15,814 nucleotides of DNA from a virus (IMGVR_UViG_2531839555_000011:1-15814), one strand, 5' to 3'; counted from the stretch's first letter, positions 1,498 through 15,814 are shown. The notes: a model not told the origin generated them from the sequence alone. Numbers and translations: made by a program.

Positions 1498-1833
1498 CAC
1501 CAGCCAACCCATTTTTGGGCCGTCGGGAATATCAACAAGTTAGCACAGAAATAACTCAGGCAGATACAAAACTCAATTTTGAGGTTTGCTTATTATTCAG
1601 TTGGTTAACATCCCTCAAAACTGAGGACTGTACCCAAAACTATTCTTATAGCTCCGGCCTCAGCCGTTGGCTTTTCCCGAAAATATCAGTCAGTTACGTT
1701 AACCGCTAATTTCTGCCTTTGGTGTGAATACTGTCGCTTTAACCTACGGTAATTGTTCTGCCTCGGTGCGTGTCACCGCCGTAACCGCGCCAGTAAAACC
1801 CACAGATTCGTGGTTTTCCTGAATATCAGGAAT

Positions 1834-2127
1834 CTACCGCCGCAACCGTTCCGGCTTCTTCCACTGGTAAGTATTTTTCGCGCTCTCCCTCCGTTGTTGA
1901 GAACGGCGACGGTATGCCAGCAACTCAAGGACTCTGGTTCGTATGTTGCGCATATCCACGCCGTTAAGCTCAATAACGTCACGGCGCATCACCTTAGCCA
2001 CCACACGCGCGTAATTTTCAGCGGTGACGGTATCCGGCTGCTTGGCCTCCGGTTTGCCTGTTGCCTGGCAGACTCCGGTAACGCAGCGAATTATTTTTAG
2101 TAGATCGGTTTCAGTCATTCTCGTCAT
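1834..2127 (-). CDS. Hypothetical basic 97-aa protein coupled to the large terminase
   Basis: ATG at 2127-2125 overlaps the terL stop (2126-2124) as ATGA. Arg/Lys-rich C-terminus. No family recognised. Confidence 0.45.
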   Translation of the reverse strand: MTRMTETDLLKIIRCVTGVCQATGKPEAKQPDTVTAENYARVVAKVMRRDVIELNGVDMRNIRTRVLELLAYRRRSQQRRESAKNTYQWKKPERLRR

Positions 2128-3785
2128 ACCCCATCAAATGCCGCTAGTCGCTCTTTCTGGCTGTCGCTCATATCAAATGCAAATTCCTCATGCTCAGCCT
2201 GGAATGTGCCAAACGCCATCAGCGCCGCAACGCTCGGGTCTATCTTGTTGGATGATTTTTTCTTGTTCGGCTTGATATTGGCGTTCGCGTCACTCTGCAT
2301 CACAACATTACTCATTGACCAGGCCAGCACCGGATCACCACGATGCACAATCACCTTCCGGTTAACAAAAACCTCGAACGATTTCGCCGCCGGACTGAAA
2401 CGAAGGTAGGTTTGAGGGAACGGCTCCACCTCAAAGCCTGCCCCCTGTAACTGCGTTCTCAGGTGCGTGGCGTTCCACGTATCAAAGCCCACCAGCCTGA
2501 TATTGAAATTCTCTGCATCCGCCATGATGTCATCACGGATACGGTCATAATCAATGCAGTCACCCGGTGTTGTGCGTATCCAGCCCGCCTTTGCCCACTG
2601 GCGATAGATGGCGCGGTTTTTATTGGCGGGGTTCTGTAGCTGAAATTCCGGCAGATAGTGACGAGAAACCAGCATAATGGTTTTACCAACCGGAAAGGCA
2701 TAGCACACGCTGGAGATGTCGCTTGTAGATGATAAATCAAGCCCCGCGTAACACTCCTGACCGTGTAAATCTTCCTCCGTGAACGTTCCGGCGCACTCAG
2801 CCCATGCACCGTTACCCATCCACGGCGTAGCCCCCTGACACCAGATATTGAATCGCTTGGTGAGCATTTCCACCCACTGCGACGGAATACCCCGCGCTTT
2901 CTGGATGGTTGAGGCCAGTTTTTCACGATCTACGGAAACATCGATATTGGGATTCGCCTTTATCCACATCGCCGGATCGTCAACCTCGCTTTCATCATCC
3001 AGCTCATAAATCAGAACGAACATGGATTCGTTCACCTCTTCACCATCCAGTATCTGGCAGCAATAGTCGTAGTGTTGTTTACAGGCTGAAACAACGTTGC
3101 TCCCCGATGTGGTGATGGCAAATAACAGCCCCTCCGGGCGTGCCCCCATTCCCAGTTCAAGCGCGGAATAAACCCCGTTGTCAGGGTGGAGGTGATATTC
3201 ATCCACAATGGCAAGACTCGGGTTTGTACCTTCAATGGTTGCTGCTTTTGCTGCCAGTGGCTTTAACAGACTGTTGGTTTTCGGGTGTATCACCTTGTGT
3301 GCCTGAATATTTACCCGCTTTCGTAACGGTCGGGATAAAAGGCACATCTGACGCGCATCATCAAACACGATCCGCGCCTGATCACGACTCACGGCGGCGG
3401 TGTAAATATCCTGCTGCCCGTTTTCCATAACCAGAAACCAGTTAGCCAGGATAGCGGCGACCGTGGATTTGGCATTTTTTCGCGGAACTTCAATGAATGC
3501 GCTGGTGTATTTGCGCCGTCCGGTGGCCTTAACCTTAAAGCCCAGGATGCACGCAAAGGCGAACTGCTGCCACGGCTCCAGCTCAATGGGGCTACCGCGC
3601 ATTGCGCCTTTTACGTGCGGACACACCCTGGAAAAGGCAATAAACCGCTCCACGACCTCCGGATCGAACGTGTAAAGGGGGTTTTCAAGGTCAGAAAAAT
3701 ACCGTTTAACGGCCTGTTTCAGTCGTTTACAGGCCGTAATTTTGCCGTTTTTTACGCCTTCTGCGTACTCATGCCAGGCGGTCAA
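2124..3785 (-). CDS. Terminase large subunit
   Basis: 553-aa ORF with N-terminal ATPase and C-terminal nuclease regions typical of phage large terminases. Apparent TTG start at 3785-3783 preceded by a GAGGA Shine-Dalgarno; overlaps the terS 3' end by 17 nt. Confidence 0.9.
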   Translation of the reverse strand: MTAWHEYAEGVKNGKITACKRLKQAVKRYFSDLENPLYTFDPEVVERFIAFSRVCPHVKGAMRGSPIELEPWQQFAFACILGFKVKATGRRKYTSAFIEVPRKNAKSTVAAILANWFLVMENGQQDIYTAAVSRDQARIVFDDARQMCLLSRPLRKRVNIQAHKVIHPKTNSLLKPLAAKAATIEGTNPSLAIVDEYHLHPDNGVYSALELGMGARPEGLLFAITTSGSNVVSACKQHYDYCCQILDGEEVNESMFVLIYELDDESEVDDPAMWIKANPNIDVSVDREKLASTIQKARGIPSQWVEMLTKRFNIWCQGATPWMGNGAWAECAGTFTEEDLHGQECYAGLDLSSTSDISSVCYAFPVGKTIMLVSRHYLPEFQLQNPANKNRAIYRQWAKAGWIRTTPGDCIDYDRIRDDIMADAENFNIRLVGFDTWNATHLRTQLQGAGFEVEPFPQTYLRFSPAAKSFEVFVNRKVIVHRGDPVLAWSMSNVVMQSDANANIKPNKKKSSNKIDPSVAALMAFGTFQAEHEEFAFDMSDSQKERLAAFDGV

Positions 3786-4125
3786 GCTCGTCCTCTTCCT
3801 CTGTTTCCGGTGGATTTCTGCGGCGGCTTACCGGGTCAAAACCCAGCAAAGAAGCCATTTTGATCATTATTCTTTCTGCGTCAGCCTTTGCGCTCAGGGC
3901 GGGGTTTCTGCTCTCGCTGCCCTGACTGTTAACAATGCTGAACCCGCGCGTCGCAAGGTCTTCGACGGCTTTGCGGTATATGGAGTAGTTAACACAATAC
4001 AGTTCCAGATTGCTCCAGTCGGCGGGGGTAAGGTCTTCCCGCCCGGAAAGCTGGCGCGATTTTTCCTTCCACTGCCTGACCGCGATTTCATCCAGGTAAG
4101 CGGGGGCTTTTGGTGGTCTTGCCAT
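3769..4125 (-). CDS. Terminase small subunit (P27-like)
   Basis: Start placed at the internal ATG (4125-4123) giving MARPPKAPAYLDEIA..., a typical P27-family small terminase N-terminus. The upstream part of the track ORF is a poly-Gly artefact of a G-run. Confidence 0.8.
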   Translation of the reverse strand: MARPPKAPAYLDEIAVRQWKEKSRQLSGREDLTPADWSNLELYCVNYSIYRKAVEDLATRGFSIVNSQGSESRNPALSAKADAERIMIKMASLLGFDPVSRRRNPPETEEEDELDRLA

Positions 4126-4412
4126 GTTTTTTTTCGCCCAATTATTTTCAAAAAAATTACCGTGCACAAAAATTTGAGGGGGCGGTCGGTGTCCGGCAGG
4201 GACGGTTTCGTCCTGAAAACCACCCCCACCCCCTCTGACGGCCTCACCAGCGATTGCGAAAACATTCCATGACCTCGCGGTCACGGTCGGTTAATCGCTT
4301 CGCTGTGGTGCGTTTTGTGCGCCCTGTCCTGTTGGCTTTGTGCTCTGTCTCCTGTGTCTTCCATGTGTCACGCTGCCTTATCAGTCCACGTATCAGCCTG
4401 GTTTGCTCCTGT
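4126..4412. other. Candidate cos / packaging-initiation region
   Basis: Non-coding gap between HNH and terS, the position cos occupies in HK97-type genomes. Contains a G/C-rich nested dyad, GAGGGGG (4176-4182) ... CCCCCTC (4229-4235) with an inner GGACG-gttt-CGTCC hairpin, next to A/T runs. Assignment is inference. Confidence 0.3.
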
Positions 4413-4853
4413 TCAGTCATCATCGCCATACATCCAGTCGTTACGGTGTGCCGCCCGTTCTTCCTGCTCGCGATACATGCCCGCTTTACGGTTTGCTTTC
4501 GTGGCTGGATCTTCCCGTGTCGTCTTACGGTTGTGGCACGTCTGGCACAATGCCTGGTGATTCCACTCAGGCCAGAAGAGAACATCACCGCCGCCATTGA
4601 TGGGAATGATGTGATCCACCACAAGAGCTGGCGTATAAATCCCCTTAGCCAGACAACGCACGCATAACGGGTTTTTGCTCAGGTACAGGGCGCGGTATTT
4701 GTCCCACTGTCGGGAATACCCGCGCGCGCGGCGGTGTCCCCGTCTGGCATCCTCTGCACGCCATGCAGCCCGCCTGTGCTCTTCACACTTGCCGGACTTC
4801 ACGCGCTTATTACAGCCAGGCTCAGTGCATCGCCTTAATGGTTGCCACGGCAT
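4413..4853 (-). CDS. HNH endonuclease (terminase-associated)
   Basis: 146 aa with Cys pairs and the H..N..H / CxxCHxxK pattern (VVDHIIPINGGGD...LCQTCHNRKT). Sits immediately upstream of terS as in HK97-like cos phages. Its ATG overlaps the connector stop by 1 nt. Confidence 0.9.
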   Translation of the reverse strand: MPWQPLRRCTEPGCNKRVKSGKCEEHRRAAWRAEDARRGHRRARGYSRQWDKYRALYLSKNPLCVRCLAKGIYTPALVVDHIIPINGGGDVLFWPEWNHQALCQTCHNRKTTREDPATKANRKAGMYREQEERAAHRNDWMYGDDD

Positions 4854-5155
4854 CAGTACACCCCTACGTCACGATAAACTGACCAGAGCGCAGAAATAGC
4901 CATAGGCAGTTCCGAGTGCTCCACTGGTGAAACCGCTTCCCGGTTCTCGTACAGGAAAGCGATGTACATCAGGCAACCAACACGCATTGCCGGGGTAAAT
5001 TCCAGCCCGTCTTCAAAACGTTTCCCGATATGCTTCTGGCAGGCTTCCAGCGCCGCATCGGTATACATTTTCAGAAGTTCGCCTTCACCGGATAAATCAT
5101 CATCAAGTCGAAGATGTGCCCTGACTTCATCAGGTGTAATTCTGGCTTCACTCAT
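4853..5155 (-). CDS. gp6-like head-tail connector / head completion protein
   Basis: Start at the internal ATG 5155-5153 with GGAGAA Shine-Dalgarno, 100 aa. Carries the family-typical LRLDDD...YENRE signature. Confidence 0.8.
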   Translation of the reverse strand: MSEARITPDEVRAHLRLDDDLSGEGELLKMYTDAALEACQKHIGKRFEDGLEFTPAMRVGCLMYIAFLYENREAVSPVEHSELPMAISALWSVYRDVGVY

Positions 5156-6362
5156 CTTTTCTCCCTTTAATTTCCACAGTCTGTTTCCATGCCTGGCTGA
5201 ACTCATCACCACCTTCACGCGGCGGCATACCCTCACGCTCACGGGCTTCGTTCGGATTCATGATCCCGTTCTTAATCCCTTTCTCATACGTGGCATAACG
5301 TTCGGTGGGTGTGGCGCGTAATAAATCGGCTGAATCAAACTCAACCAGATAACGGGTACCAGGTACGGGAGAAGCCACCAGCAAAGCGGCCTTGATTTGC
5401 TGTTCGAAGTTCGCCAGCCACGGGCGCATTGTCATGGTCAGAAACGCGCGGCTTGCCTCGCTGAAATTGCTGTAGGTGCTGTTGCTGTATTCCTGCAGAA
5501 AAATAGGCGATACGTTGAACATGCGGGCGATGTCTTCAATGGAGAAGCGACGGGAGGCCAGCCATTCCGCATCCTGGTTACTCATTCCCAGTTGCCTGTA
5601 ATCCATGCCCCCTTCAAGGATTGGCGTTTTTCCGGCATTTTTCGCCCCCTTGTAGCGTTCCAGAGCATCCAATGCCTGTTTACCTTTCACGCCGTCCAGC
5701 CATTCGCCTGACGTGATAATCCCTGCCGCCATCATGCCATCTTTCATAATGCTGGCTCCGTGGCGCTGTTGAGCAAGGCCAAGCCCAAGTGCCTCACGGC
5801 AAATCGTGACGGGGGAGCGCCCCAGAAAGCCATCATCCGAGGCATAGCGGAGATGCAGAACTTCTTCCTGTAAATACGTGCGCACCGTTCCTGTATAGGG
5901 TTCGGTGATGGTATAGCGGTATTTGTGTGCGCCTGTGCGTTCCGGTACAACACACCCCGGCGCATAAGGATGAAGTGATTTTGGCTGCCCGTCCTGCCCC
6001 CACTCAATAACCGCATAGGCGTTACCGTTCAGCAGGCAGTGACGCATCATTGTGCGTTTAAACTGGTAAGGTGTCTGGCACGAATTAGGCTGCTCATTCA
6101 GCAGAATATCTACCGGGTGACTGTCCAGCCATTCCCGCGCCTCCCTTCCCTTGTCATTACGTACCAGATACAGATAACACGGCATCGTGGCCACCGCCTC
6201 AGCGATGACAGAAACCGCATTCATCACTGCAGGCAATGATTCAGCCGTCCCGGCAGAAACATATTCTCCGGATCCGGTATTCGGTACGCCGGACAGCGCC
6301 AGAAAATCATCAATGGACAGGTTACGCTGCTCGCTTTTTTTACGACTAAAAGGCCACCACAT
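5148..6362 (-). CDS. Portal protein (HK97 family)
   Basis: Start placed at ATG 6362-6360 (MWWPFSRKK...), directly after the protease stop; the longer track ORF would overlap the protease by about 90 nt. About 404 aa with a portal-like central region. Confidence 0.9.
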   Translation of the reverse strand: MWWPFSRKKSEQRNLSIDDFLALSGVPNTGSGEYVSAGTAESLPAVMNAVSVIAEAVATMPCYLYLVRNDKGREAREWLDSHPVDILLNEQPNSCQTPYQFKRTMMRHCLLNGNAYAVIEWGQDGQPKSLHPYAPGCVVPERTGAHKYRYTITEPYTGTVRTYLQEEVLHLRYASDDGFLGRSPVTICREALGLGLAQQRHGASIMKDGMMAAGIITSGEWLDGVKGKQALDALERYKGAKNAGKTPILEGGMDYRQLGMSNQDAEWLASRRFSIEDIARMFNVSPIFLQEYSNSTYSNFSEASRAFLTMTMRPWLANFEQQIKAALLVASPVPGTRYLVEFDSADLLRATPTERYATYEKGIKNGIMNPNEAREREGMPPREGGDEFSQAWKQTVEIKGRKDE

Positions 6363-6363
6363 A

Positions 6364-6924
6364 TCACAACCCCGCCAGCTCAGACCAGCGATGACGATTA
6401 TTTCCTGTCGGGCATAATTCAGGGTGCTGTGCAAACAACGAACGGTGGGCAATCTCCACGCCAGATTCTGGATAAGCAGGCATCGACGTTATTGTGATTT
6501 CACGGAGTTCAGCGGCGGTTACGGTACGCAAATACGGTTTTTGCGCGATACTCCACTCCTCGCATAATGCGCGAAAACCAAAGCTCATTCCTGTAATGTC
6601 GCCACGCTCCACCAGCGTAAGCACATCTTTTCCAAGCTGGGTATCCGGCGGTGTCAGTTCAAAACGTAACCCGGTGTTATCCTCAGTCAGTACCAGAGTG
6701 CCGGATTTGGTGCGCCCCAGCAGTTGGGTATAGTCATGCTCATACAGGCAGCGCACATCATTACCCGCCGCCAGATAGTCAGCAAAAGCCCCCGGCGTGA
6801 ACTGTTCGCGGAATTCGTCCCAGATAATTTCTGAAAGGCTGTTCCAGCGAACGGCATACCCCACCAGCTTTTTATTGCTGGCGGTCAGTTCAGATGTGCG
6901 GATTTCAAAATCGGTGTTTTTCAT
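6364..6924 (-). CDS. Prohead maturation protease (HK97 family)
   Basis: 186 aa, GGAGT Shine-Dalgarno; sequence pattern (GYAVRWN...GAFADYL...LYEHD...GMSFGF...ITSMPAYP) typical of HK97-type prohead proteases. Confidence 0.9.
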   Translation of the reverse strand: MKNTDFEIRTSELTASNKKLVGYAVRWNSLSEIIWDEFREQFTPGAFADYLAAGNDVRCLYEHDYTQLLGRTKSGTLVLTEDNTGLRFELTPPDTQLGKDVLTLVERGDITGMSFGFRALCEEWSIAQKPYLRTVTAAELREITITSMPAYPESGVEIAHRSLFAQHPELCPTGNNRHRWSELAGL

Positions 6925-6930
6925 CGGTGT

Positions 6931-6966
6931 ACTCCATAAAGCTGAAAAAGGAGGCCGCAGCCTCCT
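6931..6966 (-). terminator. Possible partial terminator/attenuator between capsid and protease genes
   Basis: GC hairpin AGGAGGC-cgca-GCCTCCT (6949-6966) followed on the minus strand by TTTT, 13 nt after the capsid stop. Could tune capsid to protease/portal stoichiometry. Confidence 0.35.
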
Positions 6967-6978
6967 CCTTACTCATGA

Positions 6979-8148
6979 CTAGCCAGCTTTCATTTCCAGA
7001 ATTTTGATGGCGTTTGAATCCACCACACCACCGCCCAGATATTTATCCGTGTGGACCTTGTAGAATCCGGGTTCAGTAATGTTGTCCGGTCGGGTGCGAA
7101 TCCCTGTTACATGATCAACGATGAAATAACCACGACTGAAATCGCCAACCGCTAGCGGTGCTTTTCCTGCGCCGATGTCCGGCATGGACTCCAGGCAGTA
7201 AACAGGACGACCAAGCAACATATCCGGCGCACCTTCTTTAAGGCTGTCGCGCCAGATATAATCGCCGTTCTCATTTTTCAGCTTCTGTAGTGTCCCTGCC
7301 GTGCCCGAGTTCATCACCCAGACGGCATTTTTGCGGTATTTCGCTTTCAGCTTGTAGAGAATGTCGATCAGTTCGTCCGCTGTAATGGCGGTTCCACTTG
7401 CCGCTACTATTTTTTCAATGGTGCCAAAAGCGCGGGTTTTGTCACTGGTCGCCGCACGGGTGTAAGCCATGAAGCCTTTCGGCTTGCCGTTACCGTCGCC
7501 ATTAACAAAATCATCCTCTTCGGTGCTGGCGAACGTGTCGGCAATTTCGGAGGATAACCAGCCCAGAATATCCACCTCTGAAAAATCCAGGATTTCCTGC
7601 GTGGTTTTCGGGTAGGCGTAGATCGGATTCAGCTTGATGGTTACGCGTTCAATTTTCGGGGTGTTGGTTTCACTGCGTGCGCTGCCTTCTGTGCCTCGTC
7701 CTACAGTTGCGCCGCCAGTGGAAACCAGTTTCTGAAACTCATTTGATTTTGCGGTCTTCACGGTCGCGATCACGCGCATAACACTGTCATCCTGTAGCTG
7801 GCGCATGACTTCGCGATCAAGCTCAGGAATTACGGTATATCCGCCATCCCTGCCGCTGTCAGTGCTGGTGGACAGTGATCGCACATCTCCGGTTACGATG
7901 TAGTTACGCAATTCATCAGATGATAATTTCTGGATGCCCGTTCCTGGCTTGCTGCGTTCTTCATCAGCCACAGACTCGAGGCGGGAAATTTCTGTGTCGA
8001 GGGCATCAGCTTTTGCACGCAGTTCATCAAACTGTTTGCCTTCTTCAGCGTTCAGACTACGGTTTTCACTGTCGGCTTTTTCCAGCAGGGATCGCATCTG
8101 GTTTTTCAGGGCGTTTTTTTGCTGGCGGAGTTCGATTAATTTCTTCAT
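6979..8148 (-). CDS. Major capsid protein (HK97 fold) with N-terminal scaffolding-like coiled coil
   Basis: 389 aa. N-terminal about 100 aa is charged and coiled-coil-like (delta-domain-like); C-terminal core has HK97 MCP-like motifs (AVGDFSRGY). Confidence 0.9.
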   Translation of the reverse strand: MKKLIELRQQKNALKNQMRSLLEKADSENRSLNAEEGKQFDELRAKADALDTEISRLESVADEERSKPGTGIQKLSSDELRNYIVTGDVRSLSTSTDSGRDGGYTVIPELDREVMRQLQDDSVMRVIATVKTAKSNEFQKLVSTGGATVGRGTEGSARSETNTPKIERVTIKLNPIYAYPKTTQEILDFSEVDILGWLSSEIADTFASTEEDDFVNGDGNGKPKGFMAYTRAATSDKTRAFGTIEKIVAASGTAITADELIDILYKLKAKYRKNAVWVMNSGTAGTLQKLKNENGDYIWRDSLKEGAPDMLLGRPVYCLESMPDIGAGKAPLAVGDFSRGYFIVDHVTGIRTRPDNITEPGFYKVHTDKYLGGGVVDSNAIKILEMKAG

Positions 8149-8375
8149 GAAGGTTTTCTCGTATTGGTTAAGATTCAGGACGTGAAACCAACACGGAGGG
8201 AGCGCCGCCCGACACTCTCGGCATCTCGCAGATCAACCCGGCATCGCGCAGGGGGTCAGGCGGCATTGTGGCGGCTCACGTCTGAGTGCCACACGCCAAC
8301 ATATACATAAAAATCAGTATGTAAATATCAGCCAGAATCACTGAACAGCCAGAAACAACCACGAACAAATAATTT

Positions 8376-8410
8376 ACAAAACCTGAAAAGAAAACCCGGA
8401 AAAATCCGGG
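8376..8410 (-). terminator. Rho-independent terminator ending the replication operon
   Basis: On the minus strand, CCCGG-atttttt-CCGGG followed by TTTTCTTTTCAGGTTTTG, 12 nt after the stop of the 82-aa gene. Confidence 0.6.
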
Positions 8411-8421
8411 CCTTTATCGCT

Positions 8422-8670
8422 TTACTGTTTCATGGAATCCCGCATTCTGCGTCTTATTTTCCACAGATATTCGATCATCGCTTCCACCTGCTCACGGTTG
8501 GTTGCGAAAATTTCCCCGGTCAGTGAGCTGCGCAGAAAATCATGATGATCCACAACAAATAACGCATCGGAAGAAAGCAGACGGCGATATTTTTTTGCTG
8601 TCGTGGTTTCCAGATCATCAATACCATGAAACTTTTTATGTTGCTGAACTTCTTCAAATGTCACTGGCAT
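8422..8670 (-). CDS. Hypothetical 82-aa protein
   Basis: ATG at 8670-8668 with a strong AGGGGG Shine-Dalgarno at 5-nt spacing; followed by a terminator. No family recognised. Confidence 0.6.
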   Translation of the reverse strand: MPVTFEEVQQHKKFHGIDDLETTTAKKYRRLLSSDALFVVDHHDFLRSSLTGEIFATNREQVEAMIEYLWKIRRRMRDSMKQ

Positions 8671-8687
8671 GTATCCCCCTGTTATCG

Positions 8688-9110
8688 CTAAAAGGGTATG
8701 TTATCCCCATATGGATCATCATTCCCCGCCTGTTGCTTAGCCCTATTTAGAGCGTCAGTAGCCTGGCCCTGCTGGCCTTTTTTGCCACCAGGTCGCGCCG
8801 TTCTGGCACTGATTACGCTGTCTGCGATAACCTGCCAGCCCTGCCGCGTTTCCCCGTTCTGTCCGGTCCACTGGCTCACCTGCATGTTACCCGCCACGCT
8901 CAGGAGTTCACCCTTGCGGTGCTTTGCCAGTGCTTCGGCCTGTCTGCCAAACGCCAGGACGGATAACCACATCGTCGCCGTTCCGTCATCTGCCTGGCTG
9001 CACGGCAGGGTGACCGCCATGCTCGCCATAGCCATTTGTGTGCCCTTGCTGGTGGTCTTTAACTGTGGGTCAGCCACCAGCCGCCCGTAAGCCGCTATCT
9101 GTGCTGTCAT
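8688..9110 (-). CDS. Single-stranded DNA-binding protein-like
   Basis: 140 aa, OB-fold-like N-terminus, Gly/Gln-rich linker and an acidic C-terminal tip DDPYGDNIPF resembling the SSB ...DDDIPF tail. GGAGAG Shine-Dalgarno; ATGA overlap with the upstream 81-aa gene. Confidence 0.75.
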   Translation of the reverse strand: MTAQIAAYGRLVADPQLKTTSKGTQMAMASMAVTLPCSQADDGTATMWLSVLAFGRQAEALAKHRKGELLSVAGNMQVSQWTGQNGETRQGWQVIADSVISARTARPGGKKGQQGQATDALNRAKQQAGNDDPYGDNIPF

Positions 9111-9352
9111 GCTGTCTGCTCTCCGGTTTTAACGTTGATGGTTGTCACCTGTTCCGCTTCGGCAATCTCCCGTTCTGTCAGCGTGGCAAAGTTTGCAGCT
9201 GCCGTTGTCATGAATGAGCTAATCAGTTCGGGATGTGCTTTCGCATATCCTTCCCCGGCGTTGCGGTCGATGATTTTTATCGACACCCTTAACCAGTGTT
9301 CCGTCAAATCAAGGGCGTGCGATTGTGATTTTTTTGTGTGCTTCGCTGTCAT
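9107..9352 (-). CDS. Hypothetical 81-aa protein
   Basis: ORF translationally coupled (ATGA) to the SSB-like gene; weak Shine-Dalgarno. No family recognised. Confidence 0.5.
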   Translation of the reverse strand: MTAKHTKKSQSHALDLTEHWLRVSIKIIDRNAGEGYAKAHPELISSFMTTAAANFATLTEREIAEAEQVTTINVKTGEQTA

Positions 9353-9402
9353 AGGCTTTATCTCACAGCAGTAAATTAAAATTTTTGCGTTTTAACCCTT
9401 CA

Positions 9403-9626
9403 CCTGTTCACCTTTTGATATTTTATCTTTTAATTCATAATGTTAAGGGGTGAACAGTTTCACAAAAACTATTCACCAACTGTTCACCACTGTTCACCCT
9501 TGAAGCTCAATAAACAATCAAAAAGGTGAACAGTGAATAGTTTGGTGAACAGTTCATAAATAACTGTTCACCCTATAATATACTGATACAAAAGATATTT
9601 ATGACAGGGTGAACAGTGGTGAACAG
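9403..9626. repeat. Iteron-type replication origin (9 copies of GGTGAACAG/CTGTTCACC)
   Basis: Exact 9-mers at 9403, 9449, 9480, 9490, 9525, 9544, 9564, 9608 and 9618 in both orientations plus partial copies, with an AT-rich tract at 9574-9606, immediately 3' of the primase-helicase gene. Confidence 0.8.
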
Positions 9627-9639
9627 TTATTCCATAAGT

Positions 9640-11457
9640 TTAATTTTTGCTATCGTCATTAGTGACCGATACACATGATGGCATCCAGTCTTCTGATTCC
9701 TCCGTCAGTGTCACGTTTGAACGCAAACCGTGCTTCGTTTTCCGTTTCATATACTCCCTGCCATATTCCGCCATTGCCCCCGGCATATCTTTACCGAAGC
9801 GCGTCAGTGTTACAGGTTTACCAAACCCATGTGCCTTCATATAAGCCAGATAGGCATGATAGAGATACCTGCGCGGGCTGAATGGCACAATTTCAGCATT
9901 ACCCACTAACAGGCCATCACACATTACCGACGCCATGAGATAGCCGCAGAAGTCCACCAGCGAATCCCCCTCTCGCTTTATCGCCAGTGCTTCTTCAGAT
10001 TTCTGCTGCTCATATAACAGGCGTCTGGCTTCGTCCTGGTCAGCAAACCGTGTAAGCAGATGGCGAATCACTACCGCCAGCTCACCTTCTATTTTTTCCG
10101 CCAGCATTGGATCACGTTCGTTCTCCGGTACAACTTCCGAAAAATTGAATATCACCCGACGACGTGAGATCCCCCCGCTGCGGTCACTGAATGACATGGC
10201 GTTATTGTTAACCGCCAGCACTACTGCCGGAATACGCGTTGAGTAGGGGGCTTTGTGTTTCGGGTCAATTGCCACCTTGTCACCGCCTGTAATAGCCTTA
10301 ATCCCTGCCCCATCACCAGCGTAGCGGGTCATATCCGGCATGATAATCAGCGAAAAGCCAACCACTAACGCGCGTTCCCTTGCATCTTCCAGCGCCTTCA
10401 TGCTTGCCGATACTGTGTTGGCCTTACCCGCCAGCATGGTGCAAATCTCCGCCATCACGCTTTTACCACTTCCCCCTGGACCTGTTACCTCAATGAATAA
10501 CTGCCAGTCGTACCGGTTCGCCAGCACCATGAATAATGCAGCCAGTACGCGATCCGCCTTGCGGTCATTCTCAGCCACCGAACGGCGTAACCACTTCCAG
10601 AAATTCGGCGCATGTGTTGCCAGCGTTTCCCCCTCTGCTGGTGGGCTGAAAGGTAATTCACTGGCAATTAACAACCAGTCGTTTTTGTTATGCTCCCGAA
10701 AATTACCTGTTCTGGTATCAAATACCCCGTTACTGAATCCAATCAGGTTACGGGCTGTATTCCCCATTACAGGCAAACTTAACTTCATGGTATCGACCGC
10801 CGATTTAATGGCGTTCTGCGAATAGCTGATCTCCGCATCAATGAAAATCTGCGCCATAGCTCGCTGTAATTCTTTATCCTGTACTGGCTCCCATACAACG
10901 CCGTTGTAATGGTGAACAGTGTCAGAGTCGGCATGAATCGCCAGTTCACCGCCATAATGTGCCAGGAGAACTTCGCCGCGTTGACTTGCTCCCATCTGGT
11001 TAAGCGCCAGTGATGAAGCGTTATCGTCTTTTACCCGCTCTTTTTTCTTTACAGGCAGTTCAACTACCTTTTTCTTTTCCGCCAGCTCTGCCCGTTCACG
11101 TTCCAGATATTCGCGCCAGTTCTCCCGTTTCTGGCTGTGCATTCCTTCAGAGTAATAATCAGCATCCCTGACACCTGCCGCTGCCAGTTTCTGCCCGATG
11201 GTATTAACAAGCCCCGGACGCAATAACCCCGCCTGATAGAGACGCACGCGATAGCGTCCGTCCGGTACGATTTGCAGGTTGTCCAGTTCGGCAAGTTGTT
11301 GCTCTCCAAGCCAGACAGGAGGCACGTTATCGCCAGCCAGTCGCCCGTCCTGTTCCTGCCACTGTTTCGCATGTGCCCACGCATCACTACCCGCAAAAAT
11401 GATGACTTCCGTCATTTTGTCACGCGGCTGGTGTTTTAAATTTGGCGCTTTTTTCAT
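9640..11457 (-). CDS. Replication initiator: primase / SF3 helicase
   Basis: Start at ATG 11457-11455 (MKKAPNLK...) with GGAGAG Shine-Dalgarno; Walker A GPGGSGKS and Walker B-like LIIMPD; about 605 aa. Domain architecture consistent with P4/PICI primase-helicases. Confidence 0.85.
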   Translation of the reverse strand: MKKAPNLKHQPRDKMTEVIIFAGSDAWAHAKQWQEQDGRLAGDNVPPVWLGEQQLAELDNLQIVPDGRYRVRLYQAGLLRPGLVNTIGQKLAAAGVRDADYYSEGMHSQKRENWREYLERERAELAEKKKVVELPVKKKERVKDDNASSLALNQMGASQRGEVLLAHYGGELAIHADSDTVHHYNGVVWEPVQDKELQRAMAQIFIDAEISYSQNAIKSAVDTMKLSLPVMGNTARNLIGFSNGVFDTRTGNFREHNKNDWLLIASELPFSPPAEGETLATHAPNFWKWLRRSVAENDRKADRVLAALFMVLANRYDWQLFIEVTGPGGSGKSVMAEICTMLAGKANTVSASMKALEDARERALVVGFSLIIMPDMTRYAGDGAGIKAITGGDKVAIDPKHKAPYSTRIPAVVLAVNNNAMSFSDRSGGISRRRVIFNFSEVVPENERDPMLAEKIEGELAVVIRHLLTRFADQDEARRLLYEQQKSEEALAIKREGDSLVDFCGYLMASVMCDGLLVGNAEIVPFSPRRYLYHAYLAYMKAHGFGKPVTLTRFGKDMPGAMAEYGREYMKRKTKHGLRSNVTLTEESEDWMPSCVSVTNDDSKN

Positions 11458-11753
11458 TTCTGCTCTCTCCACGCGGCAATCATGTTTTTCAGTTCCTGTA
11501 GTTTTTTATCAACATCCATACATGACACATGGTTATTTCTGGAAAGCGGGATTTCCCGCCGGAATCTGCAAATAAAGATCTCCACGTTCAGCGAACTATG
11601 AAATGAATAGCCATCACGAATAAAATAAACACGGTCAAACATCAGCTCTTTTACCGTTACTCTGTTACCGTTCTTATCCAGATAAATAGCGCCGGGGATA
11701 ATTTTTGGGTGTGCATAACCGCTGGCAGTCAAGCCAGATAAATATGTTCTCAT
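11454..11753 (-). CDS. Hypothetical 99-aa protein coupled to the primase
   Basis: ATGA overlap with the primase start. About 38% GC, lower than the element backbone. No family recognised. Confidence 0.55.
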   Translation of the reverse strand: MRTYLSGLTASGYAHPKIIPGAIYLDKNGNRVTVKELMFDRVYFIRDGYSFHSSLNVEIFICRFRREIPLSRNNHVSCMDVDKKLQELKNMIAAWREQK

Positions 11754-12680: not shown

Positions 12681-12709
12681 GGCGACCGCCCCCGGTCGCC
12701 TTTGTTTTA
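12681..12709 (+). terminator. Rho-independent terminator (possibly bidirectional)
   Basis: Perfect 8-bp stem GGCGACCG-cccc-CGGTCGCC followed by TTTGTTTTAT; lies between the converging Arc-like and ORF6N genes. Confidence 0.7.
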
Positions 12710-13390
12710 TGCGCGATCATGTGCCGCCTCCCACTCATATTTATCGAAATCAATCTGCCCCATCGCATCTACCAGCCGTACCGCCGGACGCAGAACTTTG
12801 AGTTCCTTCTTGCGGAGATTCATTCCATTACTGCCCTGTGAGCCATGAAACTGCTTAGAATGCTTGTCCGCACGAGTCACGGCGTTTTGCGCATCAGTAA
12901 CCGGCATGGCGATCAGTTCTTCGAGCGACGGCAGATCCACATGATGGAAAGTGACAAACTCCGGGCAACGGAAATAAGCTTTCACGAGCTGGCGCTGTAC
13001 CTGCCAGGCCAAATCATCGTTAAACGGTTTGGTCAGCAGCAGATAGCCTGATTCCGTAATCAGTGTTACGCGGCCACGTATCGGACTGTTCATTTTTTTG
13101 CCAGGGCGTTTAATGCCCCTGTCTAAATATCCAGCCCCTCCCCATTCGACCTCTGACGCGCCGACAATAAAAAAGTCCTCACCATCAATGAAGCGAGTGC
13201 GATTACGCTGAAAAGTCTTTTTAGCCGTGTCTTTAGGTCGCTGGTGCGCGGTATCGATCATTGCGAACGTCACCACGCGTTGCCCGTGAAATTCGACGGC
13301 AGGAAACTGTTTAAGCTGCACGCTAATATCGCTTTTACTGGCAACAGGGTGAGCGAATCCCTGCCCGTTAAGGGCATTAATATTTTTCAT
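12707..13390 (-). CDS. ORF6N-domain antirepressor-like protein
   Basis: 227 aa. N-terminal GQRVVTF..ID..HQRP...FQRNRTRFIDGEDFF ... TESGYLLLTKPFNDDLAWQVQRQLVKAYFR matches the ORF6N signature of phage antirepressors as I recall it. 20 nt downstream of the AlpA-like gene. Confidence 0.75.
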   Translation of the reverse strand: MKNINALNGQGFAHPVASKSDISVQLKQFPAVEFHGQRVVTFAMIDTAHQRPKDTAKKTFQRNRTRFIDGEDFFIVGASEVEWGGAGYLDRGIKRPGKKMNSPIRGRVTLITESGYLLLTKPFNDDLAWQVQRQLVKAYFRCPEFVTFHHVDLPSLEELIAMPVTDAQNAVTRADKHSKQFHGSQGSNGMNLRKKELKVLRPAVRLVDAMGQIDFDKYEWEAAHDRA

Positions 13391-13410: not shown

Positions 13411-13695
13411 TTAAGCAGATTTGCGGCTGTACGGGTTATTGACGTTTTCCACGGCAGGCGGATTACGAACCCACCAGAGCACATCCGAAAGAAGCCAGGC
13501 ACAGCTGTTGCGGCCAAAGTGACAGCGCGGCGGGAAGCGCCCCTGCTGTTCCATCTTCCAGCGGCTCGAACGAGAAAGACTGGTGATCTCGCTGCATTCA
13601 TCTTCGCGGATTCGGCGATCGAACTTGAAGCCGTACTCCTCCAGAATGGTGCGGCGTTGTTCAGGATTTGGCGGGGTAAAGGTGATAATTTGCAT
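13411..13695 (-). CDS. alpA: AlpA-family regulator/excisionase-like protein
   Basis: Start at internal ATG 13695-13693 with GGAGG Shine-Dalgarno. C-terminal SLSRSSRWKMEQQGRFPPRCHFGRNSCAWLLSDVLWWV matches the AlpA helix-turn-helix pattern (LSRSTIYR..G.FP.P...G.R...W...E...W). Confidence 0.8.
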   Translation of the reverse strand: MQIITFTPPNPEQRRTILEEYGFKFDRRIREDECSEITSLSRSSRWKMEQQGRFPPRCHFGRNSCAWLLSDVLWWVRNPPAVENVNNPYSRKSA

Positions 13696-13790: not shown

Positions 13791-14594
13791 TTAAGGAAGA
13801 ATTTTTCTATCCTGAAGTTCTGACCTGATTTTTTCTATAGAAGAAATTGAGAAGATTTTTTCTATATTTGGCTTTACGGTTTGCGCTATCTGCGTTGAGT
13901 CATACTCTCCGTTCGGAAACACAGCCACAGCAAGCACGCCATTGGTGACGCATGCCCCGCGAGATTTAGCCCAGATCATCAAATCAACCACGGGGAAAAG
14001 TGAATAATCGTATACCTTTTTTTTAATTGTTTCCCATGACTGGTATGTTTTTTCCTTTTCTTTTATTTTTAATTCCTCACGCCAATTCTTGAGGTTTTTT
14101 TCAAACACATCAATCAATAAATCATCCGGGCGTGACAAATCAACTTTAATAAAAAGGTCATTTGGTTCCAAAAATGAGCTAACACTTGTAAATGAATGGT
14201 AAACTAAATTTTCAGCCGTTCCCGTAAAATTATTTTCCATATAATTATCTACAGCATCTTTCATATAAATAAAGTCTTCAATGGACATTGGTCGTAACGC
14301 AACCCCACCAGACAAAACACCTTCTCTTTTAATAGGAAGTTTAAACGCATCATAGAAGTACGTAGCTCTATCAATCGCATTAGCGACCGCGCCATTTCCA
14401 AGTATCCTTCCTACTTCATCGTTATTTGTAAGAGGTTCATTATAAAAAGACCCGCCATATCGATAGAAGTTTTCAAGCATGTCATATCTAACAACCAACT
14501 GATAAAATAAGTCTTTATCTGACATGCCAATAAATTGAGTGTAGTTATCTAAATCAAACCATGTTGGCAAATCTTTTTTGTGGCTAATTCTCAT
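13791..14594 (-). CDS. AT-rich 267-aa cargo protein of unknown function, coupled to int
   Basis: 804-nt ORF; 60-nt samples give about 25-45% GC against about 50% in int. ATG 14594-14592 overlaps the int stop as ATGA. No recognisable catalytic or DNA-binding motifs. Confidence 0.7.
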   Translation of the reverse strand: MRISHKKDLPTWFDLDNYTQFIGMSDKDLFYQLVVRYDMLENFYRYGGSFYNEPLTNNDEVGRILGNGAVANAIDRATYFYDAFKLPIKREGVLSGGVALRPMSIEDFIYMKDAVDNYMENNFTGTAENLVYHSFTSVSSFLEPNDLFIKVDLSRPDDLLIDVFEKNLKNWREELKIKEKEKTYQSWETIKKKVYDYSLFPVVDLMIWAKSRGACVTNGVLAVAVFPNGEYDSTQIAQTVKPNIEKIFSISSIEKIRSELQDRKILP

Positions 14595-15814
14595 TTTTCA
14601 CCAGCCTTTAAAATAACGATATTAGAGTGATTACCCGCGAGAAGTTCTAAGCGGTCATACCACTTGTTCAGCGCGTCCAGCTTCTCCGGTAAGTAAAGAC
14701 TACGGTTATAAATCGCCATAACTCCCGGCAAGGCATGGCCCAACAGCAGCTCGACTATATGCGGTGCTATACCCATATTGTTTAGCCCCGTAGAAAACGT
14801 CCGACGCAGATCGTGAAGTGTCCACGGCTCGTTATGGTGAAAATCTTTAAAAAGCCTGCGCCCTTTCAATGATACAGCCTGACGGGTACGATCTTCGCCC
14901 AGTAACAAACCTGTTTTCCCTGTCTCGCGCTTTAACTCTTCCAGCCACGGGCGTATAGCTTCAGGTATCGACCTCACGATTTTCTCTCGGGTTTTGCTAT
15001 GCTCTTTCGGTACAGTCCAAATCCACGATGTAAAATCCCACTCTGACCATCGAGAAAGGCGAACTTCCATCGTTCGCGCACCAAAAAGCACCAGCATTTT
15101 GAGCAGACGTGAATAATACGGCTGCTGATCATCGCTATCTGTACAGCGCCACACATCAGCCAGCTCGCTATCTGACAATACGCGATCACGTTGACCAGAT
15201 GGCTGGCCTACATCCTGAATGGTGAGAAAGGCCAGAGCATCACTGGCAGCATAACGGCGAACCTTGCAGAAACGTAACGCCTGTTTAGAAATCTGGAACA
15301 TGCGGCCGGCGGTCATGGGTTTAGTCTGGTTTATTTCGTCAAAACAGGCCACCCAATGGCGGGTTTCACATCTGGTGATCGGATAACGACCAAGGCGCGG
15401 GTAAATATGCTTGCGTAGCTGCGCCCTCACCAACGCCTCATCACTGCGCTTTCTCCTGGCGTAATTCACCAACCAATATTCCAGGGCGTCTTTAACCGTT
15501 ACAGGCTTAAGCGTTTCTTCTGTGCTCAGCTCAATCTCAGTTTTCGGATCAAGCCCACCAGCCAGCCACTGGCGACACTGTTCCCGCTTTTCTCGCGCAA
15601 GTTTTAGCGGCATATCAGGGTAACGGCCAAGCGTTAAACGTTCGAGTTTGCTACCCCTTCCTCCCAACCGGTATGAAAATACCCAGCTAACGTTACCTTG
15701 CTTCGAGACCTTAACGCTTAGCCCCTCACCATCGGCAATCATGATCGGCGCTTCACGCTCAGAACCCAGCAATGCTTTTAGCTTTTTGTCGCTCAGTTTG
15801 TTTGTGCCAGCCAT
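14591..15814 (-). CDS. int: Tyrosine integrase, P4-like family
   Basis: 407 aa starting at the window edge (ATG 15814-15812). N-terminal arm-binding-like region (GEGLSVKVSKQGNVSWVFSYRLGG...), C-terminal catalytic residues (HDLRRT, LLGHA, a Tyr near the C-terminus). Confidence 0.93.
   Translation of the reverse strand: MAGTNKLSDKKLKALLGSEREAPIMIADGEGLSVKVSKQGNVSWVFSYRLGGRGSKLERLTLGRYPDMPLKLAREKREQCRQWLAGGLDPKTEIELSTEETLKPVTVKDALEYWLVNYARRKRSDEALVRAQLRKHIYPRLGRYPITRCETRHWVACFDEINQTKPMTAGRMFQISKQALRFCKVRRYAASDALAFLTIQDVGQPSGQRDRVLSDSELADVWRCTDSDDQQPYYSRLLKMLVLFGARTMEVRLSRWSEWDFTSWIWTVPKEHSKTREKIVRSIPEAIRPWLEELKRETGKTGLLLGEDRTRQAVSLKGRRLFKDFHHNEPWTLHDLRRTFSTGLNNMGIAPHIVELLLGHALPGVMAIYNRSLYLPEKLDALNKWYDRLELLAGNHSNIVILKAGEK

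Follow-up and report, generated by a model that had tools for sequence, protein, structure and literature searches.

Capsid-first gene order and a conserved hairpin after the capsid gene in a capsid-forming phage-inducible chromosomal island of Escherichia coli

Introduction

Among proteobacterial phage-inducible chromosomal islands that form capsids (cf-PICIs), the conserved organisation is capsid, protease, portal and connector genes followed by hnh, terS and terL, and in the island EcCIEDL933 each packaging gene is needed for transfer (Alqurainy et al., bioRxiv 10.1101/2022.09.08.507074). The same module order is used as a criterion for identifying cf-PICIs (He et al., bioRxiv 10.1101/2025.02.11.637232). 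Two Firmicute cf-PICI lineages have other orders, either portal-protease-capsid or HNH-terS-terL first (Alqurainy et al., bioRxiv 10.1101/2022.09.08.507074). Here we describe the gene order and the hairpin after the capsid gene in a viral DNA record of 15,814 nucleotides (nt) (IMGVR_UViG_2531839555_000011:1-15814; the whole stretch is called the window below), which is a cf-PICI of Escherichia coli inserted between hpt and gcd. Helper-phage induction, small T=4 capsids and the use of helper tails have been shown for EcCIEDL933 only.

Phages with HK97-type heads are the second point of comparison. HK97 shares with the window the families of the HK97-fold capsid, S78 protease, portal, Ad1, P27-type terS, terL and an HNH gene next to cos, but its order is terS-terL-portal-protease-capsid-Ad1-Hc1 and its capsid is T=7, whereas that of the cf-PICI EcCIEDL933 is T=4. 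As in the window, a GC-rich tetraloop hairpin and a U-run lie directly 3' of the major capsid gene of HK97, where they shield connector and tail genes only. Elsewhere in phages, T-phi after gene 10 of T7 is a leaky intrinsic terminator, which balances the expression of structural genes. Leaky phage terminators resemble the window in that a stem-loop and U-run directly follow the most abundant structural gene and the downstream genes need read-through; the host RNA polymerase is assumed for the window. In phages, terminators of low efficiency are a documented means of balancing expression (PMC9163698), and a literature search on terminators after capsid genes returned general precedent only.

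Gene order of the packaging module

The long open reading frames (ORFs) of the window lie on the minus strand throughout. Gene calls are Pfam and PHROGs profile matches, and the starts of portal and terS were taken from the RefSeq models for an E. coli chromosome segment (L087) of 98.4% identity, in which the gene models have the same boundaries and the island, about 15 kb long, is flanked by hpt and gcd. In the direction of transcription the order is capsid, protease, portal, Ad1 adaptor, HNH, 61-aa ORF, candidate cos spacer, terS and terL, as follows.

6979-8148, minus strand: HK97-fold major capsid protein, 389 aa, at the head of the candidate operon (PF05065, E 2e-71; phrog_10)
6364-6924, minus strand: S78 prohead serine protease, 186 aa (PF04586, E 7e-46; Shine-Dalgarno (SD) sequence GGAG at 6932-6935, ATG at 6924)
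5148-6362, minus strand: portal, 404 aa (PF04860, E 2e-92; ATG 1 nt past the protease stop)
4853-5155, minus strand: Ad1-type head-tail adaptor, 100 aa (phrog_40, E 6e-29; PF05135; 8-nt overlap with the portal stop)
4413-4853, minus strand: HNH endonuclease, 146 aa (PF01844; phrog_144, E 4e-45; ATGA overlap with the adaptor stop)
4244-4429, minus strand: conserved 61-aa ORF between HNH and terS (in RefSeq; no Pfam match)
4126-4243, minus strand: non-coding spacer, candidate cos region
3769-4125, minus strand: small terminase (terS), P27 family / Terminase_4, 118 aa (PF05119, E 5e-23)
2124-3785, minus strand: large terminase (terL), 553 aa (PF03354 and PF20441; phrog_9, E 5e-181; 17-nt overlap with terS)
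1834-2118, minus strand: 94-aa ORF, last gene of the module (phrog_1561; in RefSeq)

This is not the canonical HK97-type order (terS-terL-portal-protease-capsid-adaptor). The records of HK97, SfI and P27 all run terS-terL-portal-protease-capsid, and comparison with them by Pfam and PHROGs identities confirms what an earlier, sequence-only reading of the window had proposed, namely that the order is inverted relative to HK97. An inversion of the DNA was rejected as its origin: every gene keeps the same strand, so the window order is a permutation.

Related loci, 80 in number, were gathered by capsid profile from species-representative genomes of Enterobacterales, Pasteurellales and Orbales, with capsid identities of 63-81%. 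By the sequence-only reading's own criterion, related elements with no conserved order would refute it; order and strand are kept in all 78 loci that hold at least two module genes (all seven genes are present in 61). An independent set of 80 IMG/VR contigs gave a similar picture, with all seven genes in the window order in 56 and partial or circularly permuted versions of the same order in nearly all of the others. Among relatives, variation is seen in the head-closure gene, in the 61-aa ORF and in additional inserts that follow the capsid gene. Capsid-first order has been inherited throughout the proteobacterial cf-PICI lineage and is no peculiarity of the element in the window. It is already known as a published cf-PICI hallmark, and its re-discovery here adds little; the idea that the arrangement is a special satellite device gives way to that published, conserved organisation.

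The window shares int, AlpA, a D5-type primase and SSB with EcCIEDL933 and the proteobacterial cf-PICI family. With the EcCIEDL933-type island it further shares the order (capsid-protease-portal-adaptor-HNH-terS-terL, read in the O157:H7 island) and strand of the packaging genes, the lack of tail and lysis genes and a size of about 14-15 kb. Protein identities to that type are 47% for the integrase, 56-63% for adaptor, protease, capsid and 94-aa ORF (63% for the capsid) and 94% for terL. The two differ in integration site (hpt-gcd in the window, near phoQ/roxA in EcCIEDL933), and the window lacks the head-closure gene found before the adaptor in the EcCIEDL933-type island; the capsid leader and the post-capsid stem differ in sequence but have the same architecture. 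The nearest "phage" records are cf-PICI genomes of 15-16.5 kb that were deposited as phages. True phages reach only about 35-37% in capsid identity.

Assignment to the cf-PICIs follows from the integrase at one end, AlpA, primase-replicase, capsid/protease/portal, adaptor and HNH/terS/terL, and from a size within about 10-18 kb. Between hpt (1-537) and int, Pfam and PHROGs identified no ORF of a tail or lysis kind. Ten of the 11 SatelliteFinder cfPICI core components are present, and since SatelliteFinder accepts 9-10 of the 11 as types B and C (PMC10085698), the absent head-closure gene does not exclude membership. This gene content, together with the known cf-PICI order, bears out the earlier proposal of a satellite.

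The hairpin after the capsid gene

Only two real spacers occur within the module, one of 54 nt between capsid and protease and one of 118 nt before terS; from protease to HNH the genes are separated by 1-nt gaps or overlap, and terS and terL overlap by 17 nt. The first spacer follows the capsid stop codon (TAG, 6981-6979) and holds the following element.

6945-6970, minus strand: hairpin and U-run between the capsid and protease genes (from folding and conserved position)

The hairpin consists of a 5' arm AAGGAGGAGGC (6970-6960), a UGCG loop (6959-6956) and a 3' arm GCCUCCUUUUU (6955-6945). In its GC core, GGAGGC-UGCG-GCCUCC, positions 6960-6965 pair with 6950-6955, and U5 lies at 6945-6949; A-U and G-U pairs lengthen the 6-bp core to 11 bp, ending in U5, a tract shorter than that of a strong terminator. 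Folding of the 41-nt context gives -19.2 kcal/mol (z = -3.0), and an 81-nt context was folded as well. A terminator-like hairpin between the capsid gene and the remaining genes had been proposed from sequence at 6931-6966; folding upholds its presence and shifts its position slightly. From the hairpin to the protease ATG there are only about 20 nt, which hold just the SD.

A consensus scan for promoters and terminators over 1500-9700 listed neither this hairpin nor the clear terminator at 8385-8414, and it likely missed the former because the stem extends into the T-run. Terminator calls in this study rest on direct folding, and negatives of the consensus scan alone are not trustworthy. Rfam, searched at gathering and permissive thresholds, returned nothing meaningful for the hairpin, for the capsid leader described below or for the rest of the window, and neither structure was found in the cf-PICI papers that were read.

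In relatives the capsid-protease spacer is typically 32-54 nt long (79 loci) and runs from a G-rich arm through a short loop, a C-rich arm and a U-run to the protease SD. A hairpin was counted where a spacer of typical length folded at -8 kcal/mol or better. By this measure 67 of 68 typical-length genome spacers have one, as do only 3.5% of 2616 control windows of equal length taken from these modules, so that it occurs far more often than by chance; it is likewise present in 67 of 68 spacers from the independent IMG/VR set. The hairpin, like the order, is kept among related elements, and its absence from them had been named as a refuting outcome by the sequence-only reading. In the genome spacers it starts 1-13 nt past the capsid stop, and in relatives a U-run of 3-6 follows the stem. 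Because the loops, 3-7 nt in length, are mostly UNCG tetraloops (UUCG, UACG, UGCG), the hairpin appears to be an RNA-level element. Pairing is kept with different stems, as in GGAGGC/GCCUCC of the window, a 14-bp stem in Proteus and GGGAU/AUCCC in one Xenorhabdus locus. When the spacers were aligned by plain MAFFT, 4-nt-loop and 5-nt-loop hairpins fell out of register, and that alignment was not used for pair counts; pairs were assessed in loop-anchored tables and a tetraloop-only alignment.

The same place is occupied by hairpins in phages of canonical order. Directly after gene 5 of HK97 stands GGGCGGG-GAAA-CCCGCCC followed by UUUU, annotated as a putative terminator in NC_002167, and SfI and P27 have strong hairpins at the same post-capsid position, that of P27 without a 3' U-run. 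The hairpin is not satellite-specific, and its earlier interpretation as a satellite adaptation does not stand. The capsid gene and its 3' hairpin look like a unit older than the satellite.

Three genome loci (L037, L040, L073) and four IMG/VR contigs carry 220-1900 nt between the capsid and protease genes, so this junction tolerates cargo or insertions. In L040 and L037 the hairpin still stands directly after the capsid stop despite the insert.

Transcription signals and a proposed polarity of expression

Two signals upstream of the capsid gene bear on how the module may be transcribed.

8385-8414, minus strand: intrinsic-terminator-like hairpin GGCCCGGA-UUUU-UCCGGGUU, then UUCUUUUC (fold -15.2 kcal/mol, z -2.8)
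8298-8325, minus strand: sigma-70-like promoter TTTACA, 16 nt, TATGTT (from the consensus scan), candidate operon start

The terminator-like hairpin would close the replication module after the 82-aa ORF and set it apart from the packaging operon. The promoter-like site is one of only two minus-strand matches in 1500-9700, the other lying at 2118-2090, past terL, and its -10-like TATATCTT/TATGTT is conserved in relatives just 5' of the leader helix P1. The packaging operon likely starts at this site. Between 8298 and 2118 the consensus scan found no minus-strand promoter-like site. Given this lack and the mere 20 nt or so from hairpin to ATG, the downstream genes would be reached by read-through. 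The hairpin would then be at most a partial terminator, because polymerase must read through it and all EcCIEDL933 packaging genes are needed for transfer, and it may chiefly stabilise a capsid-only mRNA at its 3' end.

Between the terminator and the promoter (8341-8383, minus strand) lies a run of TGT triplets about one helical turn apart (TTGTAAATTATTTGTTCGTGGTTGTTTCTGGCTGTTCA), the first part of which is conserved in relatives. It may be a regulator binding site.

We lean, by a little over even chances, towards an inherited leaky terminator and/or 3' stabiliser after the capsid gene that gives a polarity of capsid over portal. The head and packaging genes would form one operon running from the 8298-8325 promoter through a structured leader to capsid and on to terS and terL. 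The hairpin at 6945-6970 would act at the RNA level, as a leaky intrinsic terminator, a 3'-end stabiliser or both. Transcripts ending or trimmed there would encode capsid only and read-through transcripts would supply all genes beyond it, leaving capsid message in excess of downstream-gene message by termination or by stabilisation. Capsid-first order plus hairpin would thus amount to a simple polarity gradient, and one in the right direction, because a T=4 shell takes about 235-240 capsid copies against 12 portal subunits (the EcCIEDL933-type T=4 shell has 240 major capsid protein positions). The hairpin would have come along with the HK97-type capsid gene; in canonical phages it separates capsid from connector and tail genes, whereas the cf-PICI order puts protease, portal and terminase behind it as well.

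Several observations weigh against this polarity. The U-run is short, in many relatives only UUU followed by C, and for this reason termination may be weak or absent; if the leader makes RNA polymerase terminator-resistant, the hairpin would not terminate at all. About 7 of 79 relatives (spacer of 18 nt or less, mostly Xenorhabdus) have no hairpin, which is therefore dispensable. As the GGGGC/GCCCC sequence is itself conserved, formal covariation in the tetraloop-only alignment is weak: two pairs have double changes, and 90 of 500 shuffles reach that count. The case for the hairpin consequently rests on positional conservation and enrichment. Since canonical-order phages carry the hairpin too, it is no evidence that the order evolved for stoichiometry, and since Firmicute cf-PICIs function with other orders, capsid-first is not required for the cf-PICI lifestyle.

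Alternative explanations

Some of these points would be expected if the order had no stoichiometric function. It may have been fixed once in the proteobacterial cf-PICI ancestor and kept by tight packing and translational coupling, with the hairpin as inherited baggage, an account that we take seriously without favouring it. The three cf-PICI lineages have three orders, all functional; HK97, SfI and P27 carry the same post-capsid hairpin in canonical order; the genes from protease to HNH and terS-terL overlap or lie 1 nt apart, which makes rearrangement costly; and some relatives have lost the hairpin. Such an accident accounts less readily for an order that is invariant in 78 of 78 loci from three bacterial orders, at the capsid divergence given above, though other parts of the module vary, or for a hairpin kept in about 90% of loci despite sequence changes. 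A different possibility, to which we give about one chance in four, is that the hairpin does not terminate but only shields a processed capsid mRNA at its 3' end, or serves as an RNase processing site, so that capsid excess arises by mRNA stability and translation. The short and often interrupted U-run, the stem capped by a stable UNCG tetraloop and the P27 equivalent that lacks a 3' U-run are in keeping with it, as is the stable hairpin P1 at the 5' end of the capsid mRNA, by which both ends would be protected. Yet the stems of the window, the Enterobacter-type loci, the Pasteurellales and HK97 run directly into U4-U6 after an A/G-rich pairing tract, the classical layout of an intrinsic terminator.

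Two further explanations are far less probable. Were the hairpin a full terminator, the genes from protease to terL would need a separate promoter. Nothing speaks directly for this, although a consensus scan cannot exclude promoters inside the capsid gene; such a promoter, however, would still face read-through of the hairpin, no minus-strand promoter-like site was found from 8298 to 2118, and the short SD-bearing gap before the protease ATG leaves little room, so that we consider full termination very unlikely. Scarcely more credible, and if anything less so, is an inverted repeat that acts as DNA, be it a protein-binding palindrome or a recombination site. The GGGGC/GCCCC core is conserved in sequence while formal covariation is weak, as a DNA element would predict, but the spacing of the arms varies from 3 to 7 nt, Proteus and the window have stems of quite other sequence and length, the loops are RNA-type UNCG or GNRA tetraloops, and the placement is in every case linked to the capsid stop codon.

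A structured leader upstream of the capsid gene

The non-coding stretch upstream of the capsid gene is 270 nt long and holds a second candidate RNA structure.

8149-8293, minus strand: structured 5' leader of the capsid mRNA, with helices P1 (8267-8293), P2 (8204-8264) and P3 (8152-8189)

P1 is a two-tier hairpin with a GACG loop, P2 is long, variable and rich in compensatory changes, and the only SD-like sequence (GAG/GGA) is in P3, immediately 5' of the AUG. Across 22 leaders, RNAalifold and the counting of pairs both back P1 and the basal part of the variable P2: 12 of 28 pairs show compensatory changes, a value reached by none of 500 shuffles, and 95% of leader cells are paired, compared with about 40% when the partners are slid. 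The leader has no Rfam match, and a literature search on its sequence turned up no paper. Its P1 motif occurs in 29 of 82 genome loci (Enterobacterales), and 78 of 80 IMG/VR contigs have the leader motif at 110-150 nt upstream of a capsid gene. Leaders are also found at L001 15637-15800, L002-L019, L025, L026, L036, L044, L050, L062, L063, L066, L067 and L069.

The inner strand of P1, AGACGUGA (8276-8283), is complementary to the 5' arm of P3, UCACGUC (8179-8185). The two haplotypes found in 87 unique leaders show complete linkage: CUCAGACGUGAG goes with UUUCACGUC, and CUCCGRCGGGAG goes with UUUCCCGUC. The EcCIEDL933-type leader has another sequence and the same architecture, with U7-8 after P3 directly before the AUG; its 34 IMG/VR copies are almost identical and hence uninformative for alternative pairing. 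These observations, essentially one covariation event and one independent lineage, suggest that the leader is a switch between alternative pairings.

This leads to a tentative proposal, which we hold to be possible but clearly short of probable, that the capsid gene is a self-contained riboregulated unit. The leader would switch between a closed P1 plus P3 and a pairing of the P1 inner strand with the P3 5' arm, hiding or exposing the only ribosome-binding sequence; the 3' hairpin would close the unit and meter read-through to the low-copy genes beyond it, and the capsid-first order would exist for leader gating. Such gating would possibly respond to a helper-phage or satellite factor, and P3 with U7-8 in the EcCIEDL933 type would be a terminator-like hairpin directly before the capsid AUG. 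The proposal covers the leader-carrying Enterobacterales cf-PICI lineages, as counted above by the P1 motif, and the EcCIEDL933 type. A likeness of the leader to the put antiterminator RNA of HK022, two stem-loops just after a promoter, is possible and is offered as a lead only; the sparse annotation of the HK022 record does not give the place of putL.

The cos region and other features of the island

The sequence-only reading had placed cos between HNH and terS, which appears reasonable. The 4126-4243 spacer probably holds cos: within 4209-4233 it has a G-rich tract GGGGGTGGGGGTGG (4220-4233), then TTTTCAGGAC, and in P27 a cos site is annotated immediately before the terminase genes. The right end of vB_KppS-Ant, the linear record of a packaged cf-PICI that was deposited as a phage, aligns to about window position 4210, which suggests, as a lead only, a cut site near there.

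The small ORFs of 61 aa (4244-4429) and 94 aa (1834-2118) are additions to the gene list of the sequence-only reading, and both are conserved in the EcCIEDL933-type island. The 61-aa ORF, which overlaps the HNH stop, is 77% identical to its EcCIEDL933-type equivalent and has tblastn matches in 20 relatives.

For the head-closure/connector gene, tblastn with the EcCIEDL933-type head-closure protein gave no match in the window, where the portal stop overlaps the adaptor start. The gene precedes the adaptor in 55 of 64 relatives, and nine loci, the window among them (junction 5148-5155), pass directly from portal to adaptor. Because adaptor and connector determine tail specificity in cf-PICIs (He et al., bioRxiv 10.1101/2025.02.11.637232), the subgroup that lacks the gene may dock differently to helper tails.

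The remaining genes are, in the direction of reading, as follows.

14591-15814, minus strand: tyrosine integrase, at one end of the island (PF13356, PF00589 and PF22022)
between integrase and AlpA, minus strand: DUF6387 protein
13411-13695, minus strand: AlpA regulator (PF05930, E 5e-10)
between AlpA and primase, minus strand: ORF6N protein
9640-11472, minus strand: D5-type primase-replicase (D5_N, DUF5906, Pox_D5; phrog_864, E 4e-192)
8688-9110, minus strand: SSB
8422-8670, minus strand: 82-aa ORF, end of the upstream replication module
1-537: hpt, host gene

PADLOC gave no defence-system match for eight small or uncharacterised ORFs (four in 716-1709, and those at 1834-2118, 8422-8670, 12707-13390 and 13791-14594).

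Between hpt and the last ORF lie 1.3 kb (538-1833) that have no RefSeq annotation. This stretch recurs in 878 of 5426 E. coli genomes, in up to six places per genome, and a related cf-PICI at a tRNA-Ile site (L242) has it at its end too. Two 121-nt direct repeats (943-1063 and 1377-1497) within it are 94% identical and highly structured, with four hairpins each (z about -5 to -6). Three TTGCGGGTTA iterons, set 21 nt apart (1297-1348), adjoin an AT-rich block and have inverted copies at 1194-1208. A near-identical genome is without one 434-nt repeat unit of the region. On these features it could be an attachment (att) arm, an origin or a non-coding RNA.

Over half of the 80 species-level matches come from Xenorhabdus and Photorhabdus, an unusually high satellite load. 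Five separate cf-PICI capsid loci are listed for Xenorhabdus innexi (L023, L028, L029, L031, L055), and single Xenorhabdus genomes carry five or more.

Implications for satellite biology

For every 12 portal subunits, cf-PICIs have to produce about 240 of capsid from an operon of 6 kb that has no obvious internal promoter. A concrete and testable point is that conserved RNA structures stand on both sides of their capsid gene, a leader at its 5' end and a hairpin at its 3' end. If hairpin and leader do set the capsid-to-portal ratio, they would offer handles for engineering cf-PICI particles as DNA-delivery vehicles, and would help to explain how satellites time capsid assembly relative to helper tail production.

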